From IMG/VR virus record IMGVR_UViG_2877973648_000005, positions 1-20,376 of that record: a stretch of DNA of 20,376 bases. One strand, 5' to 3'. The position numbers and the translations under genes were made by a program. The notes beneath the pieces were generated by a model. The model saw nothing but the letters and a program-made list of their open reading frames with translations. It did no database searches and was not told where the DNA came from. The stretch is from a virus (taxonomy: Duplodnaviria > Heunggongvirae > Uroviricota > Caudoviricetes). Positions 915 to 17,652 of the stretch are shown here, piece by piece; the stretch's first letter is position 1; each line of letters starts with the position of its first letter.

Positions 915-1418
915 TTATTGATAGTGTTTTATGTTCAGATAATGCCCGATGACTTTGTCATGCAGCTCCACCGATTTTGAGAACGACAGCGACTTCCGTC
1001 CCAGCCGTGCCAGGTGCTGCCTCAGATTCAGGTTATGCCGCTCAATTCGCTGCGTATATCGCTTGCTGATTACGTGCAGCTTTCCCTTCAGGCGGGATTC
1101 ATACAGCGGCCAGCCATCCGTCATCCATATCACCACGTCAAAGGGTGACAGCAGGCTCATAAGACGCCCCAGCGTCGCCATAGTGCGTTCACCGAATACG
1201 TGCGCAACAACCGTCTTCCGGAGACTGTCATACGCGTAAAACAGCCAGCGCTGGCGCGATTTAGCCCCGACGTATCCCCACTGTTCGTCCATTTCCGCGC
1301 AGACGATGACGTCACTGCCCGGCTGTATGCGCGAGGTTACCGACTGCGGCCTGAGTTTTTTAAGTGACGTAAAATCGTGTTGAGGCCAACGCCCATAATG
1401 CGGGCTGTTGCCCGGCAT
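915..1418 (-). CDS. insB: IS1 InsB frame (expressed as InsAB' by -1 frameshift)
   Basis: 167-aa ORF overlapping insA in the -1 frame, as in canonical IS1. Confidence 0.88.
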
Positions 1419-1612
1419 CCAACGCCATTCATGGCCATATCAATGATTTTCTGGTGCGTACCGGGTTGAGAAGCGGTGTAAGTGAACTGCAGTTGCCATG
1501 TTTTACGGCAGTGAGAGCAGAGATAGCGCTGATGTCCGGCGGTGCTTTTGCCGTTACGCACCACCCCGTCAGTAGCTGAACAGGAGGGACAGCTGATAGA
1601 AACAGAAGCCAC
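1337..1612 (-). CDS. insA: IS1 InsA (transposition repressor / N-terminal part of the InsAB' transposase)
   Basis: 91-aa [46 protein letters not shown]..., the canonical IS1 InsA. Confidence 0.92.
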
Positions 1613-1744: not shown

Positions 1745-2695
1745 TTACAACCAGTTCTTCCGCTTAAAGTACAGATACGGTGCCAGGCCCGCGAGGATCA
1801 TAAAGATAATCGCGGCAGGGTAGCCGAAGCTCCACTTCAGTTCTGGCATAAACTCAAAGTTCATGCCATAGCTGGAAGCAACGAGCGTCGGCGGCAGGAA
1901 TACCACGGATACCACCGAGAAGATTTTGATGATGCGGTTCTGCTCGATGTTGATAAAACCCATTGCCGCCTGCATCAGGAAGTTCACCTTCTGGAACAGG
2001 GATTCGTTATGCGGCAGCAGGGATTCGATATCTCGCAGGATTTCACGCGCCTGCTCCAGTTGCCCACCCGGTAAACGCGCTTTACGCACCAGGAAGTTGA
2101 GCGCGCGCTGGGTATCCATCAGACACAGGCGAACTTTCCAGCCGATATCTTCCAGTTCCGCCAGAGTGGAGAGCGCCTCGTCGTACTCATCGCCCTGATG
2201 CCCTTCCATAATCACCCGGCTCAACTGCTCCAGGTCGCTATAGATATTTTCAATTTCATCTGCCAACTGTTCGATTTTGGTTTCGAACAGATCCAGCAGC
2301 AACTCGTAGGCGTTACCGTCTACCATCGACTGGCTACGGGCACGCATACGATACAGACGAAAAGCGGGCAGTTCACGCTCACGCAGAGTAAACAGACGAC
2401 CATCACGGATGGTAAATGCCACAGTGGAGTTACCGGCGTGATCTTCCGCATCTTCAAAGAAGAAGAAGGAGTGAATATGCAGGCCGTCGTCGTCTTCAAA
2501 GAAACGTGCCGATGCTTCGATGTCTTCCAGTTCCGGGCGGGTTGCCAGGCTCTGGCCAAGTTCAGATTGTAAGCGCAGTCGCTCGTCGTCGTCCGGTTCG
2601 ACAAGATCAATCCATACTGCATTTACAAGGGGTTGTGACTCTTCGACTTCCAGCCGGGTCAGTCGGTTATTTTCCAGTTGAAATGCGCTCAGCAT
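1745..2695 (-). CDS. corA: CorA magnesium/cobalt transporter (316 aa, GMN motif)
   Basis: Translation [20 protein letters not shown]...[18 protein letters not shown]...KRKNWL matches E. coli CorA. The ORF track's upstream Met adds 5 codons; the native start is taken as 2695. Confidence 0.9.
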
Positions 2696-3407: not shown

Positions 3408-3683
3408 GTGGCTTCTGTTTCTATCAGCTGTCCCTCCTGTTCAGCTACTGACGGGGTGGTGCGTAACGGCAAAAGCACCGCCGGACATCAGCGCTATCTC
3501 TGCTCTCACTGCCGTAAAACATGGCAACTGCAGTTCACTTACACCGCTTCTCAACCCGGTACGCACCAGAAAATCATTGATATGGCCATGAATGGCGTTG
3601 GATGCCGGGCAACAGCCCGCATTATGGGCGTTGGCCTCAACACGATTTTACGTCACTTAAAAAACTCAGGCCGCAGTCGGTAA
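3408..3683 (+). CDS. insA: IS1 InsA
   Basis: Identical 91-aa translation to the InsA at 1337-1612. Confidence 0.92.
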
Positions 3684-4105
3684 CCTCGCGCATACAGCCG
3701 GGCAGTGACGTCATCGTCTGCGCGGAAATGGACGAACAGTGGGGATACGTCGGGGCTAAATCGCGCCAGCGCTGGCTGTTTTACGCGTATGACAGTCTCC
3801 GGAAGACGGTTGTTGCGCACGTATTCGGTGAACGCACTATGGCGACGCTGGGGCGTCTTATGAGCCTGCTGTCACCCTTTGACGTGGTGATATGGATGAC
3901 GGATGGCTGGCCGCTGTATGAATCCCGCCTGAAGGGAAAGCTGCACGTAATCAGCAAGCGATATACGCAGCGAATTGAGCGGCATAACCTGAATCTGAGG
4001 CAGCACCTGGCACGGCTGGGACGGAAGTCGCTGTCGTTCTCAAAATCGGTGGAGCTGCATGACAAAGTCATCGGGCATTATCTGAACATAAAACACTATC
4101 AATAA
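3602..4105 (+). CDS. insB: IS1 InsB frame
   Basis: Identical 167-aa translation to the InsB at 915-1418. Confidence 0.88.
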
Positions 4106-7384: not shown

Positions 7385-7879
7385 TCATTTCCAATTGCAA
7401 GACTGTGAAATTTTTTCCACAACCTTATCAATCTCAGACAAGTCAAACTCAACTACTTGCATAGTTGATCCATAAGGTTCAAACCCAAAAATAGCTTTTT
7501 TATGCTTAGCCAAGGTCTTTATAAATTGTATTGGTTGTGGAGCAAATGCAGAATCACCGCCTTCCCCACCTCCCCAAACACTCTTGACCGGCTTTCCGCC
7601 ATCTAACCGCACTGTAATTCTTGGGTTGTCCGAACCCATATAATCATTGAATGATAAATAGGCATCTGTTTTGTTATCACTACAACGCAACACCAGTGAA
7701 GTTGCACGATCAGTACCTGCTTTGTTATATGAATCTGGTGATAAATTAAGAGCCACAAAGTCAGTCTGGTCAGTCATTTTATTTATCTCAGACTTTGTTA
7801 TCCACGGCCCTAACTTCTCTACACCAGCATTTGCTGTAAACGAGGCACTTATAACAAAGGCTAAAATAAATTTTCTCAT
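7385..7879 (-). CDS. Hypothetical secreted protein (164 aa) with Sec signal peptide; moron in the ren/ninA position
   Basis: N-terminus MRKFILAFVISASFTANA is a signal peptide; strong RBS aaggaga; AT-rich codon usage distinct from flanking lambda genes; own terminator. Confidence 0.65.
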   Translation of the reverse strand: MRKFILAFVISASFTANAGVEKLGPWITKSEINKMTDQTDFVALNLSPDSYNKAGTDRATSLVLRCSDNKTDAYLSFNDYMGSDNPRITVRLDGGKPVKSVWGGGEGGDSAFAPQPIQFIKTLAKHKKAIFGFEPYGSTMQVVEFDLSEIDKVVEKISQSCNWK

Positions 7880-14919: not shown

Positions 14920-15141
14920 ATGGCAGACATCATTGATTCAGCATCAGAAATTGAAGAATTACAGCGCAACACAGCAATAAAAATGCGCCGCCTGAACCAC
15001 CAGGCTATATCTGCCACTCATTGTTGTGAGTGTGGCGATCCGATAGATGAACGAAGACGCCTGGTCGTTCAGGGTTGTCGGACTTGTGCAAGTTGCCAGG
15101 AAGATCTGGAGCTTATCAGTAAACAGAGAGGTTCGAAGTGA
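14920..15141 (+). CDS. TraR/DksA-family C4 zinc-finger protein (lambda orf73-like)
   Basis: CCECGDPIDERRRLVVQGCRTCASCQ four-Cys motif. Confidence 0.7.
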   Translation: MADIIDSASEIEELQRNTAIKMRRLNHQAISATHCCECGDPIDERRRLVVQGCRTCASCQEDLELISKQRGSK

Positions 15142-15449
15142 GCGAAATTAACTCTCAGGCACTGCGTGAAGCGGCAGAGCAGGCAATGCATGACGACTGG
15201 GGATTTGACGCAGACCTTTTCCATGAATTGGTAACACCATCGATTGTGCTGGAACTGCTGGAACTGCTGGATGAGCGGGAAAGAAACCAGCAATACATCA
15301 AACGCCGCGACCAGGAGAACGAGGAAATTGCGCTAACGGTAGGAAAGCTGCGCGTTGAGCTGGAAGCAGCAAAATCAAAACTCAACGAGCAGCGTGAATA
15401 TTACGAAGGTGTTATCTCGGATGGAAGTAAGCGTATTGCTGAACTGTAG
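15138..15449 (+). pseudogene. ea22: Truncated ea22 (N-terminal 103 codons only)
   Basis: MSEINSQALREAAEQAMHDDWGFDADLFHELVTPSIVLELL... matches the start of lambda Ea22 (182 aa in lambda); it ends where the AT-rich island begins. Confidence 0.65.
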
Positions 15450-15699
15450 GCCTAGGTTGAGTGTACAAGATTTGCATACGTAAGAGCAAAAGACAAGGGA
15501 GAATTGATCAGAGTTATTACCTGCCAACCAACGGGATATTACGCTTACGTACCATGTAACTAGGAATCCTTGAAGTGGCAGCCTAACTGTGGATACACTG
15601 AAATGGCGATTTGGTAACATGTTTCGCACAAGGCTGTTACTACGCTTAGAGATAATCAGTCATGATTAAATGCTTTGTAAAAAGTAAAAGGAAATTACA

Positions 15700-16314
15700 A
15701 TGAAAAAATCAACACTAATTTTAGGGCTTACGTTAATTGTCTCATCTCAAATACCATCGGCAATGGCAAAAAATGAATCAAAACTTTGGGTTGTTGTTGA
15801 TCGAACGGAAAGACATACCTGCCCTTCAAGTAAATGTGGAGTGGCTGGGAAACTATTTTTCAGGGAAGGCGTAGATTTTCTAGAAAAAAAAGGTGAATGG
15901 GTTCGTATAACTGAGCCATATTCAGCCTCATGTGTGGGAGGGGAAAGCGAATATATTAAAGAAGGTAATAAATCCTGCACAAGAAAAAACGGAATCGTTA
16001 ATGGCAAGTTTTCAGAATGGGTTAAACTTAGTGATCTTAGCAGTGAAAGGCCATCAGATCCTGCTGAAAATGCGAGCAGAAATGATACCTTAATCAAAGG
16101 ATCTGATGACTACCGTATATACAAAAAAGAGTTTTCTTCGGCAGCTAGGAAGTTAATAAGTGAAGGTGTCTGCACGGAGAGCGATTTTAAGGAAGTTGGA
16201 GGGTGGATGGCATCAAGCAATAAGGGTGAAAACATCTATTTCACATATTGCGGAGGAATGACGTTGTCGAACAGAATATATCTAGACGTTAAAAGTGGAA
16301 AGACTTTTAGATAA
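15700..16314 (+). CDS. Hypothetical secreted Cys-rich protein (204 aa), cargo gene
   Basis: Signal peptide MKKSTLILGLTLIVSSQIPSAMA; AAGGA RBS; six Cys in the mature part; very AT-rich relative to the prophage backbone. Confidence 0.65.
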   Translation: MKKSTLILGLTLIVSSQIPSAMAKNESKLWVVVDRTERHTCPSSKCGVAGKLFFREGVDFLEKKGEWVRITEPYSASCVGGESEYIKEGNKSCTRKNGIVNGKFSEWVKLSDLSSERPSDPAENASRNDTLIKGSDDYRIYKKEFSSAARKLISEGVCTESDFKEVGGWMASSNKGENIYFTYCGGMTLSNRIYLDVKSGKTFR

Positions 16315-16607
16315 TATGATATTACCAATGACAGCATTAATTTAATGCCTCCATAGAATTATCTCTAGGAAGTAAGTATAAGAAAAGTCCGCACAATGAG
16401 CTGCTGCGGGCTTTGTGTTATTCGCCATATTTTATGAAGCAAATACGACACTATAGATAATTAAGCGTTACTGGTTGTCGATTCCTCACTCATTCCTGCT
16501 GATGGCTGTCTTCTTGTATGTGTCATTGAAGGGTAATATCGCGTAAAAAGATACCGGAAGTATCCGCGCCGCCATGATTGTCTTTCTCCTGATGCAGGAA
16601 AAGCAGA

Positions 16608-16946
16608 ATGACTAAATCAGCAGCAGAGCGCAAAGCCGATCAGAGAGCCAAGCAAGCATCATCCGGTATGCGTAAGCTGGAGCTTGTACTTGATGCTCAG
16701 GAAATTGAAATGCTGGAGCGTAACTGAGCCACGCGCCGCTTCAGGCGTGCGCCTTACGAGTTTGGTGAGTACATAGCGTTACTGAGCCGCCAGGATGATG
16801 CACGTGTGCGCTGGCGTATAAAATCGATTAGCAGAAAACGTTGCCGTAAGTGCGGCGAGAAAGTTCCTGTTAATTCATGCCCGTGTAATGGTGACTCACA
16901 ATACTGGGTGACCAAAGGCTGGCACGAAACAAAATTAATGATATAA
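16608..16946 (+). pseudogene. Zinc-ribbon small protein gene interrupted by an in-frame TGA (39 codons, TGA at 16725-16727, then 72 more sense codons)
   Basis: AGGAAAAG RBS before the ATG at 16608; the same frame continues after the TGA to a TAA at 16944-16946 and encodes CRKCGEKVPVNSCPCNG. Neither half alone reaches 60 aa. Confidence 0.4.
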
Positions 16947-16974
16947 ATCTCTGTGACATGTCACGGAGGCGGCA

Positions 16975-17403
16975 ATGAAATTAGACCAGCAATATCTAAA
17001 AGATCTACTTATCGCATTCGAAAAAACTTATGGCCCTGACACGATGCTTAGTGAACTAGAGGATAATGGCTTTAATAGATATGACCAAAATTTTATTTTC
17101 CATATGCGATTATTATGTGACTACGAATTAATAGTTAGGGTTGATGGAAAACCTGGGTTCGGTCATATAATGTCCAACGAGTTAGGGGAAGGTGTTGAAT
17201 ATAGTTGGATCGAAGTACCACTGAGGTTGACAGCAAGAGGGCATGATTTTATTGCTGACTTACGTCAAAAGGAGGTCTGGCAAGCTATAAAAACAAACTT
17301 TAAGGATGAGGGGATTAGTACTCTTATGAGTGTTTCAAAATCACTAGCAAAAGGCTTTGCAAGAAAAAAAATAAAAGATATTACAGGAATAGATATTGAA
17401 TAA
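16975..17403 (+). CDS. Hypothetical cytoplasmic protein (142 aa), cargo gene
   Basis: Strong GGAGG RBS; AT-rich; followed by a terminator; no recognisable family from sequence alone. Confidence 0.65.
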   Translation: MKLDQQYLKDLLIAFEKTYGPDTMLSELEDNGFNRYDQNFIFHMRLLCDYELIVRVDGKPGFGHIMSNELGEGVEYSWIEVPLRLTARGHDFIADLRQKEVWQAIKTNFKDEGISTLMSVSKSLAKGFARKKIKDITGIDIE

Positions 17404-17448
17404 TTCTTAGCATAAAGCAACTACTGCCTTTGGTGAAAATTATATCTG

Positions 17449-17471
17449 AACTCGCTACGGCGAGTTTTTTT
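17449..17471 (+). terminator. Rho-independent terminator after the 142-aa gene
   Basis: CTCGC-TACG-GCGAG hairpin followed by TTTTTTT. Confidence 0.6.
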
Positions 17472-17511
17472 ATGGAGATGATAAATGCACTTCCGAGTCA
17501 CAGGTGAATAG

Positions 17512-17652
17512 AATGGAGAACCATTCAACAGAGTTATCGAAGCCGAGAACATCAGCGACTGCTATGACCACTGGATGCTGTGGGCGCAGATAGCACATGC
17601 AGACGTAACCAATATTCGAATTGAAGAACTGAAAGAACACCAAGCCGCCTGA
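17512..17652 (+). pseudogene. Start-less 3' remnant of an Ea8.5-like gene
   Basis: 46 sense codons (...ISDCYDHWMLWAQIAHADVTNIRIEELKEHQAA*) bounded upstream by TAG with no initiation codon; lies where lambda ea8.5 sits relative to xis. The Ea8.5 assignment is from position and memory only. Confidence 0.4.

Follow-up and report, generated by a model that had tools for sequence, protein, structure and literature searches.

Exported hypothetical proteins are common among morons, and a few envelope-acting phage proteins are well described. The lambda genes bor and lom are late-region lysogenic-conversion genes for an outer-membrane protein or lipoprotein, and T4 Spackle (Sp), Imm, SieA, Cor and Llp are periplasmic or envelope proteins of superinfection exclusion. 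The lysozyme inhibitors PliC and MliC show a pattern of soluble variants alongside lipoprotein or membrane-anchored ones. Bacterial SH3 (SH3b) domains (PF08239) occur in lysostaphin, in phage endolysins and in NlpC/P60 peptidases, and their ligands may be other than peptidoglycan. The exo–xis slot of lambda and Stx phages is occupied by ea22 and ea8.5, which are described in terms of the lysis–lysogeny decision and not of export (PMC8614690, PMC7093339). Exo–xis genes are among the earliest expressed (PMC8614690, PMC4195576), and lambda turns on its pL early-left operon when lytic growth begins (PMC8614690).

The gene analysed here lies in the exo–xis region of a lambda-like prophage and encodes a predicted exported protein. 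We rate the product as a prophage accessory protein that probably binds the wall through an SH3b domain and joins to it a partner domain not described before, and the gene is best read as a self-contained, horizontally mobile accessory gene of the moron type. The dissection of its family into domains, together with the taxonomic and mobile-element distribution of the family, is new.

A replacement cassette in a defective prophage

The window, by which we mean the whole stretch of 20,376 nucleotides that was analysed, is identical to the chromosome of Escherichia coli 1218KP, where a defective lambda-like prophage lies between ybhB and ybhC. In this prophage, an IS1-bracketed corA segment stands in place of the lysis and structural half; what is left comprises Q, the nin region, O/P-type replication genes, repressor/cro-like genes, gam–bet–exo, the exo–xis region, xis and int. 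When the window was compared with lambda (NC_001416) by blastn, homology stopped at 15446 and restarted at 17439, with flanks 97–98.5% identical to lambda. The cassette between these positions (Table 1) has taken the place of 762 bp of lambda sequence, namely the 3′ part of ea22 plus ea8.5, and contains the target gene, a UmuD-like/HTH pseudogene (16608–16946) and an intact DUF2513 gene (16975–17403). A homologue of orf73/TraR and an Ea22-like gene lie upstream of it (for background, see PMC9239242 and PMC10834534), the latter cut at the left junction of the cassette. This remnant alone is Ea22-like: the target gene has no homology to ea22 or ea8.5. An Rfam scan of 15300–17500 found no RNA family.

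The target gene is intact among neighbours in decay, as the Ea22-like gene just upstream, both ORFs flanking the DUF2513 gene and ren are all pseudogenes. The GC content of the gene and its cassette is 38.5–40%, compared with 47.6% for the window; at 38.5% the gene is clearly lower than its surroundings, yet this falls short of the extreme AT-richness ascribed to it in an earlier reading made from the sequence alone (hereafter the sequence-only reading). Among 5,426 complete E. coli genomes, 130 (about 2.4%) carry the cassette from end to end, and the isolated phage Chlobot has it complete and in the same slot. The sequence-only reading had further supposed that prophage-encoded exported proteins in this slot are often superinfection-exclusion, surface-modification or virulence factors. 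This does not agree with the lambda and Stx phages, in which the slot holds ea22 and ea8.5, neither of them described as exported (PMC8614690, PMC7093339); an exception is the lambda-like relative ev099, which has an exported LprI-family protein (gp35) in its exo–xis slot, and to which the target protein shows no similarity. Accessory status within the prophage is, however, borne out by the low-GC cassette that stands in place of ea22′/ea8.5 and by the recurrence of the gene in unrelated mobile elements. The cassette has two of the marks of a moron: it is extra DNA at a point where related phages have other genes, and its base composition is deviant.

Table 1. Features of the target locus, in window coordinates
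Feature	Coordinates	Strand	Basis
Truncated ead/Ea22-like gene, 103 codons (lambda: 182)	15138..15449	+	RefSeq "missing C-terminus"; PHROG 250/368
Replacement cassette, 1,992 bp, ~39% GC	15447..17438	+	blastn against lambda NC_001416
Leader, 142 nt	15558..15699	+	Co-transfer with the ORF between lambda-like and P1/P7-like backbones
Target CDS, 204-aa precursor	15700..16314	+	ORF check, RefSeq annotation
Predicted signal peptide, aa 1–23, MKKSTLILGLTLIVSSQIPSAMA	15700..15768	+	Sequence reading; export signals family-wide
SH3b (bacterial SH3) domain, aa 24–112	15769..16035	+	
Conserved linker, aa 113–124	16036..16071	+	Family alignment; pLDDT 87–96
Undescribed C-terminal alpha/beta domain, aa ~125–204 (~80 aa)	16072..16311	+	
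Hairpin with U-rich tail (…CCGCAC…GCUGCGGGCUUUGUGUU), candidate terminator	16384..16420	+	RNA fold

A real gene under purifying selection

The ORF that the sequence-only reading had described is present exactly as claimed, with an ATG at 15700, a stop codon at 16312–16314 and 204 codons. A Shine–Dalgarno sequence, AGGA, lies 7 nt 5′ of the start codon, and RefSeq annotates the product as a "hypothetical protein" (WP_000749915.1). Comparison with an allele 84% identical in DNA gave a dN/dS of 0.095 for the whole gene, the differences being mostly synonymous; by part, the ratio was 0.027 in the SH3b domain, 0.11 in the C-terminal part and 0.38, a relaxed value, in the signal peptide. The gene is thus under purifying selection. 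A word-indexed search with the target protein returned 79 homologous clusters, and an exhaustive profile search at E ≤ 1e-3 returned 856 family representatives. Because of this constraint and of both sets of relatives, we take the ORF to be a real gene and not a chance one. An antisense ORF at 15747–16097 (116 aa) was rejected as a chance shadow ORF, its frame being open for at least 100 codons in only 12 of 65 loci.

PHROG 8310, whose function is unassigned, matches the target protein end to end (E 7e-135) and is the group to which it belongs. Profile searches with the target protein found 0 NCBIfam families and 0 PADLOC defence families, and a search of one literature library found nothing on WP_000749915 and nothing on SH3-type periplasmic exclusion proteins. 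The earlier statement that the protein has no recognisable family does not hold for the whole protein, given PHROG 8310, or for its N-terminal half, which is an SH3b domain; it does hold for the C-terminal domain alone.

The DNA homology between the window and the corresponding locus of a P1/P7-like phage-plasmid (L090) covers exactly 15558–16316, that is, the leader and the ORF. The leader contains a weak sigma-70-like pair, TTGAAG (15570–15575) and TACACT (15594–15599), with an 18-nt spacer and 8 of 12 matches; in the alignment with L090 both hexamers are kept and the spacer has diverged. A conserved GATAAT (15651–15656) and a Shine–Dalgarno sequence AAGGAA (15688–15693) follow. From these elements we infer a candidate promoter in the leader; a consensus promoter scan found no site on the + strand at a threshold of 9 of 12. 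Approximately 70 nt 3′ of the stop codon lies a hairpin (dG −15 to −16 kcal/mol, z −2.1) that is a candidate intrinsic terminator and was not picked up by a strict terminator scan. In the P1-like context, the ORF is followed by a different and stronger hairpin with a T-run.

Predicted export and an SH3b domain

As read from the sequence, the N terminus of the target protein (MKKSTLILGLTLIVSSQIPSAMA followed by KNESK) has the layout of a Sec signal: an n-region with KK (MKK), an 11-residue h-region (STLILGLTLIV) and a c-region (SSQIPSAMA) with Pro at −5 and Ala at −3 and −1, so that cleavage is predicted between SAMA and K, after Ala23. A lipobox Cys is absent from the signal peptide, and cleavage by SPase I and a soluble periplasmic product are therefore predicted. 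The mature product would have 181 aa, a mass of 20.3 kDa and a basic pI of 8.7. Export signals of one kind or another, either a signal peptide with or without a lipobox or a hydrophobic (TM-like) N-terminal segment, are found in 127 of 138 full-length relatives. In some relatives, the hydrophobic segment belongs to a longer N-terminal extension that precedes the domains shared with the target.

The mature part has six cysteines (C41, C46, C78, C93, C158 and C184), all of which are invariant in an alignment of 30 sequences. In the wider family, 41 comes and goes with 46, 78 with 93 and 158 with 184, a co-occurrence that is the pattern expected of three local disulfides. The AXA-type signal peptide and the six cysteines of the sequence-only reading are thereby upheld, and Sec export and periplasmic disulfides are well-supported predictions.

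Structure prediction, which that reading had proposed as a check, gave a confident AlphaFold2 model from the family alignment (mean pLDDT 89.6; 96–98 in the folded parts). The modelled N-terminal domain has an SH3-like beta-barrel fold that resembles known cell-wall-binding SH3b domains, the nearest structure being an SH3b domain of Bacillus anthracis (9ovi). Pfam SH3_3 (PF08239) matches the target protein at aa 40–72 with 16 bits (E 0.014), which is below the gathering cut-off of 27 bits. Relatives P0162, P0184 and P0178 are above this cut-off, with 35, 75.8 and 57 bits, respectively, and 34 of the 48 long relatives have an SH3_3 match at E < 1e-3. The N-terminal half is, then, an SH3b domain by fold, and by sequence only at the level of the family. 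Its two predicted disulfides, C41–C46 and C78–C93, are specific to this family, and C78–C93 sits in a conserved loop insertion of 35 residues. The linker that follows carries a nearly invariant motif, R117-P118-x-D120-P121.

An undescribed C-terminal domain

In the AlphaFold2 model, the C-terminal domain (C-domain) has a helix–helix–three-strand layout. It is marked by the motifs SDD[YF], C158..DF, GGW, YFTYC184GG and NRIYL, and a disulfide is predicted between C158 and C184. No match was found in Pfam even at E ≤ 10, no relative in a viral structure library, no NCBIfam match and no relative among the solved structures of the PDB. Sequence searches of the PDB returned de novo designed TIM barrels (E down to 9e-9), which we rejected as a repeat-summation artefact because the score adds up one weak helix match four times, once for each identical repeat of a design; at most one stretch per match passes alone, and the individual i-E-values in the alignments shown are 30–75.

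The C-domain is the part that all members of the family share. In longer relatives it comes after one to three SH3b domains, and proteins of approximately 102 aa from Agrobacterium, Rhizobium and Marinobacter have it alone behind a signal peptide or lipobox; such arrangements are those of an autonomous module. The N-terminal extensions of the 48 long relatives include zinc-ribbon/TM-type anchors, extra SH3b domains, one ankyrin and one HIRAN domain, and in none of the 48 is an enzyme domain, wall-acting or otherwise catalytic, fused to the family. There is no conserved His or free Cys in the alignment of 30 family sequences. The target protein lacks the domains and residues of peptidoglycan hydrolases (NlpC/P60, amidase, lysozyme and transglycosylase), and it has no sequence similarity or significant fold similarity to the lysozyme-inhibitor families Ivy, MliC/PliC, PliG and LprI.

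Distribution on mobile elements and chromosomes

Members of the family occur in several mobile settings. The allele of the P1/P7-like phage-plasmid is 87% identical in protein and adjoins a humD-like gene. In Pseudomonas, relatives lie directly 3′ of integrases in islands of approximately 6 kb, and in an Aeromonas prophage a relative lies between a Q-type antiterminator and the holin. On other viral contigs, relatives are found at module borders, beside terminase/portal, head protease/portal or tail genes; some are between tail and replication genes, and the strand is often opposite to that of the flanking structural genes. The relatives in the Pseudomonas islands, the Aeromonas prophage and the other viral contigs are 57–68% identical to the target.

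When one genome of each species was scanned, 77 loci came up (30–65% identity), all in diderms and spanning Gamma-, Alpha- and Betaproteobacteria, Campylobacterota, Acidobacteriota, Vampirovibrionales and others. Close relatives include proteins of soil Pseudomonas, marine Rhodobacterales, Rhizobiales, Acidobacteria and Vampirovibrionales. The GC content of the gene equals that of its surroundings in Alphaproteobacteria and is 6–10 points lower in E. coli and Pseudomonas. Most members of the family lie on chromosomes, as native stand-alone genes of free-living diderms from several phyla, and this is an argument against a phage-specific or virulence-specific origin. Nor did it prove to be a common housekeeping periplasmic family, the identification that the sequence-only reading had named as telling against it: the family, though widespread, has not been characterised, and E. 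coli carries it as an accessory gene (130 of 5,426 genomes).

Neighbour clustering at 65 genome loci found no conserved neighbour gene, and Pfam profiling of 105 neighbours found a scatter of metabolic genes. Synteny is conserved only in Vibrio, and there the genes are unrelated (GGDEF/EAL, a phosphonate-binding protein, SecDF and Nap). A toxin- or effector-immunity pair was ruled out on the same grounds. As no neighbour is conserved, the protein probably acts alone. Identity is 45–57% across Proteobacteria, Acidobacteria and Vampirovibrionales, and this conservation, together with the lack of a conserved neighbour, suggests a stand-alone function against a universal target.

Proposed function and its alternatives

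We propose, tentatively and with a little less than an even chance of being right, that the target protein is a wall-tethered, non-catalytic binder or guard carried as a moron. The product would leave the cytoplasm through Sec, lose its signal peptide by cleavage after Ala23 and acquire three local disulfides during oxidative folding in the periplasm. The SH3b domain would tether it to the peptidoglycan sacculus, and the C-domain, which has no catalytic signature, would bind a second, highly conserved extracytoplasmic target; the extent of identity across phyla argues for a universal ligand of the C-domain over a lineage-specific receptor. Such a wall-anchored protein would change what reaches or acts on the cell wall of the carrier, most likely by blunting wall-active factors from outside, for example the muralytic enzymes of incoming phages, competitors or hosts. 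Transcription in the lysogen may come from the gene's own promoter. Selective constraint, the export signals, the restriction of the 77 loci to diderms, the cysteine pairs, the autonomy of the C-domain and the lack of fused enzyme domains are all consistent with a binder or guard, and low GC, the replacement of lambda genes, the co-transferred leader, the downstream hairpin, presence in several mobile elements and survival as an intact gene in a decayed prophage point to a moron. Against the proposal, the SH3_3 score of the target itself is below the cut-off, SH3b ligands are not confined to peptidoglycan, no sigma-70 promoter reaches the scan threshold, and the gene could, in this setting, simply be a member of the pL early-left operon. 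A broader version, to which we give a rather low probability, is that the C-domain (SDD[YF]…C…DF…GGW…YFTYCGG…NRIYL) represents a new and widespread exported 'guard' domain class of diderms that would neutralise a conserved wall-active agent, alone or tethered by SH3b, and that would have been captured repeatedly by temperate phages to protect lysogens.

Two more specific roles share features with the binder or guard. The protein could be dedicated to superinfection exclusion, blocking the entry of incoming phage genomes in the periplasm, for example by occluding peptidoglycan or by neutralising virion-borne wall hydrolases in the manner of T4 Spackle. The gene occupies positions typical of morons in a phage-plasmid and in several temperate phages that are not related to one another, and is kept intact in a decaying prophage, and its product is predicted to be periplasmic and wall-directed, all of which would suit such a role. 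We nevertheless consider exclusion unlikely, given that PADLOC has no match and PHROG 8310 no assigned function; that most members are non-phage chromosomal genes of native GC in free-living bacteria of several phyla, without phage neighbours; and that the very high conservation across phyla is unusual for arms-race proteins. Alternatively, the protein could be tethered to the wall and use its C-domain as a module that inhibits exogenous enzymes (lysozyme or another peptidoglycan hydrolase, or a protease), a function analogous to that of Ivy, PliC/MliC and LprI. The small size and predicted disulfide of the module fit this idea, as do the stand-alone gene, the soluble, lipoprotein and membrane-anchored variants of one module and the exported LprI-family 'lysozyme inhibitor' that the related lambda-like phage ev099 has in the same slot. 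On the other side, the target resembles no known inhibitor family in sequence or, to a significant degree, in structure, and this role is similarly unlikely.

The remaining readings are less probable still. The gene occupies the ea22/ea8.5 position co-directionally with the pL operon, in a slot whose genes are among the earliest expressed (PMC8614690, PMC4195576), and could on that account be an ordinary exo–xis developmental gene of lambda type, expressed early in lytic growth from pL and tuning the lysis–lysogeny decision or host physiology like ea22, ea8.5 and orf63. An exported, wall-directed product as predicted here would be unlike ea22 and ea8.5 in the papers cited; the sequence is unrelated to either, the gene has its own conserved leader, and its location is altogether different in other phages and on chromosomes outside phages, which makes this reading quite improbable. 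A further reading is a small peptidoglycan-modifying enzyme, with the SH3b domain for targeting and a catalytic C-domain. Against it, the C-domain is only ~80 aa long, has no conserved His, has both of its cysteines in a predicted disulfide and has no Pfam enzyme match; we regard an enzyme as highly improbable. Hardest to credit is a virulence or adhesion factor for animal hosts, in the manner of lysogenic conversion by lambda Lom or Bor. Although the protein is prophage-borne and predicted to be exported, in E. coli isolates from humans and animals, its close relatives are in the soil, marine and other bacteria listed above, the target is predicted to be soluble and periplasmic and not surface-exposed, and it has no similarity to Bor or Lom.

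Significance and comparison with known systems

If the proposed role is true, a periplasmic, peptidoglycan-tethered family would join the short list of envelope-acting lysogenic-conversion functions, and a new exported domain would be defined that has 856 representatives in several diderm phyla and neither a Pfam entry nor a solved structure. Were the protein protective against phages, lysozymes or T6SS effectors, it would matter in practice to phage therapy and to an understanding of the fitness that prophages confer, because the domain is mobile among lambda-like phages, P1-like phage-plasmids, Pseudomonas islands and other phages. Even if it merely binds the wall and has no phenotype, the annotation of a 'hypothetical protein' in approximately 2.4% of complete E. 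coli genomes would be usefully upgraded. The breadth, conservation, mobility and clean testability of the module make it a reasonable candidate for follow-up.

Among described families, PHROG 8310 carries no functional or structural annotation. The described SH3b proteins, such as lysostaphin, phage endolysins and NlpC/P60 peptidases, differ from the target, which is not fused to a hydrolase, is predicted to reside in the periplasm of diderms and has two extra predicted disulfides as well as the conserved 35-residue loop insertion (C78–C93). In comparison with the lysozyme inhibitors Ivy, PliC/MliC, PliG and LprI, the target has no detectable homology or fold match, and inhibition is purely hypothetical; like them, it is small, stand-alone and, by prediction, exported and disulfide-containing, and its family has both soluble and lipoprotein or membrane-anchored versions. 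The target has no homology to Spackle, Imm, SieA, Cor or Llp, and, unlike theirs, its family is mainly chromosomal and conserved across phyla; with these proteins it shares a phage-encoded origin, a predicted action in the envelope and, possibly, the wall-degrading entry machinery as a target. Finally, bor and lom lie in the late region and are unrelated to the target in sequence and fold, whereas the target lies in the exo–xis region and is predicted to be a soluble periplasmic protein and not an outer-membrane protein or lipoprotein. Like them, it is nonetheless a piece of extra, compositionally distinct DNA of a lambdoid prophage that encodes a predicted envelope protein, with a leader of its own on one side and a terminator-like hairpin on the other.

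A defective prophage with further cargo

Located between ybhB and ybhC, the prophage is defective and carries an IS1-flanked corA segment: the segment bracketed by the two IS1A copies, which holds corA, ysgD and one truncated gene, occupies the position at which the lysis and structural genes of a lambda-like prophage are expected. Elsewhere in the window, between a ren pseudogene and the nin region, a patch of low GC content (39–41%) surrounds an ORF that is annotated as a TagO protein and has a clear signal peptide (MRKFILAFVISASFTANA). The prophage that carries the gene for the exported SH3b protein WP_000749915.1 thus seems to have a second exported moron in this ORF.

Within the low-GC cassette that contains the SH3b gene, the DUF2513 gene is intact and is flanked by two ORFs with internal stops. 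In a 96.7%-identical variant of the cassette and in Chlobot, an isolated phage with the whole cassette in the same slot, a gene annotated as ‘DNA repair protein’ or UmuD-like lies between the SH3b gene and DUF2513. At the cassette junction, the Ea22-like gene breaks off after 103 codons, compared with 182 in Ea22 of lambda (domain layout in PMC10834534), and so lacks its C-terminal part. An antisense ORF within the SH3b gene is not conserved, its frame being open over at least 100 codons at only 12 of 65 loci of relatives, and is interpreted as a shadow ORF that arose by chance.

Coordinates of features in the window and in related loci
Feature	Location	Strand	Remark
IS1A copy 1	window 915-1612
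corA	window 1745-2695		between both IS1A copies
IS1A copy 2	window 3408-4105
164-aa ORF	window 7385-7879	-	‘type VI secretion system-associated protein TagO’
Ea22-like gene	window 15138-15449		truncated
Antisense ORF	window 15747-16097	-	116 codons
ORF	window 16608-16946		internal stops
DUF2513 gene	window 16975-17403		PHROG 585
ORF	window 17485-17652		internal stops
SH3b gene surroundings, P1/P7-like phage-plasmid	L090 3681-6949
232-aa exported protein, phage ev099 (NC_049953)	L089 2518-3216		‘lysozyme inhibitor LprI family’

Other mobile contexts of the family

Relatives that combine the SH3b domain with the C-terminal domain (C-domain) occur in small Pseudomonas islands (L002, 6402-12411, and L005-L008), in which the gene lies about 80–100 bp downstream of a tyrosine integrase gene and is accompanied by more co-directional ORFs of about 105–337 amino acids. 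These further ORFs have no Pfam matches on record, and a PHROGs scan of five ORFs of L002 returned a single regulator-like match. The islands may represent an undescribed integrative element. In the P1/P7-like phage-plasmid, the SH3b gene has a humD-like S24 peptidase gene on one side and, on the other, a group of ORFs, among them Tad2-like and dUTPase genes. The region resembles one with an accessory or counter-defence role.

The C-domain also occurs on its own, in exported proteins of about 102 amino acids from Agrobacterium, Rhizobium and Marinobacter (relatives P0327, P0324, P0336 and P0321). Several viral contigs (L136-L139) carry matches to the C-domain only, and the ORF of L138 encodes a stand-alone protein of 102 amino acids.

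Cargo of the ea22–xis slot

In the lambda relative ev099, the slot that holds the SH3b gene in the window is instead filled by the LprI-family protein. Comparison of the two proteins revealed no sequence relationship. The slot can therefore accommodate different periplasmic cargo.
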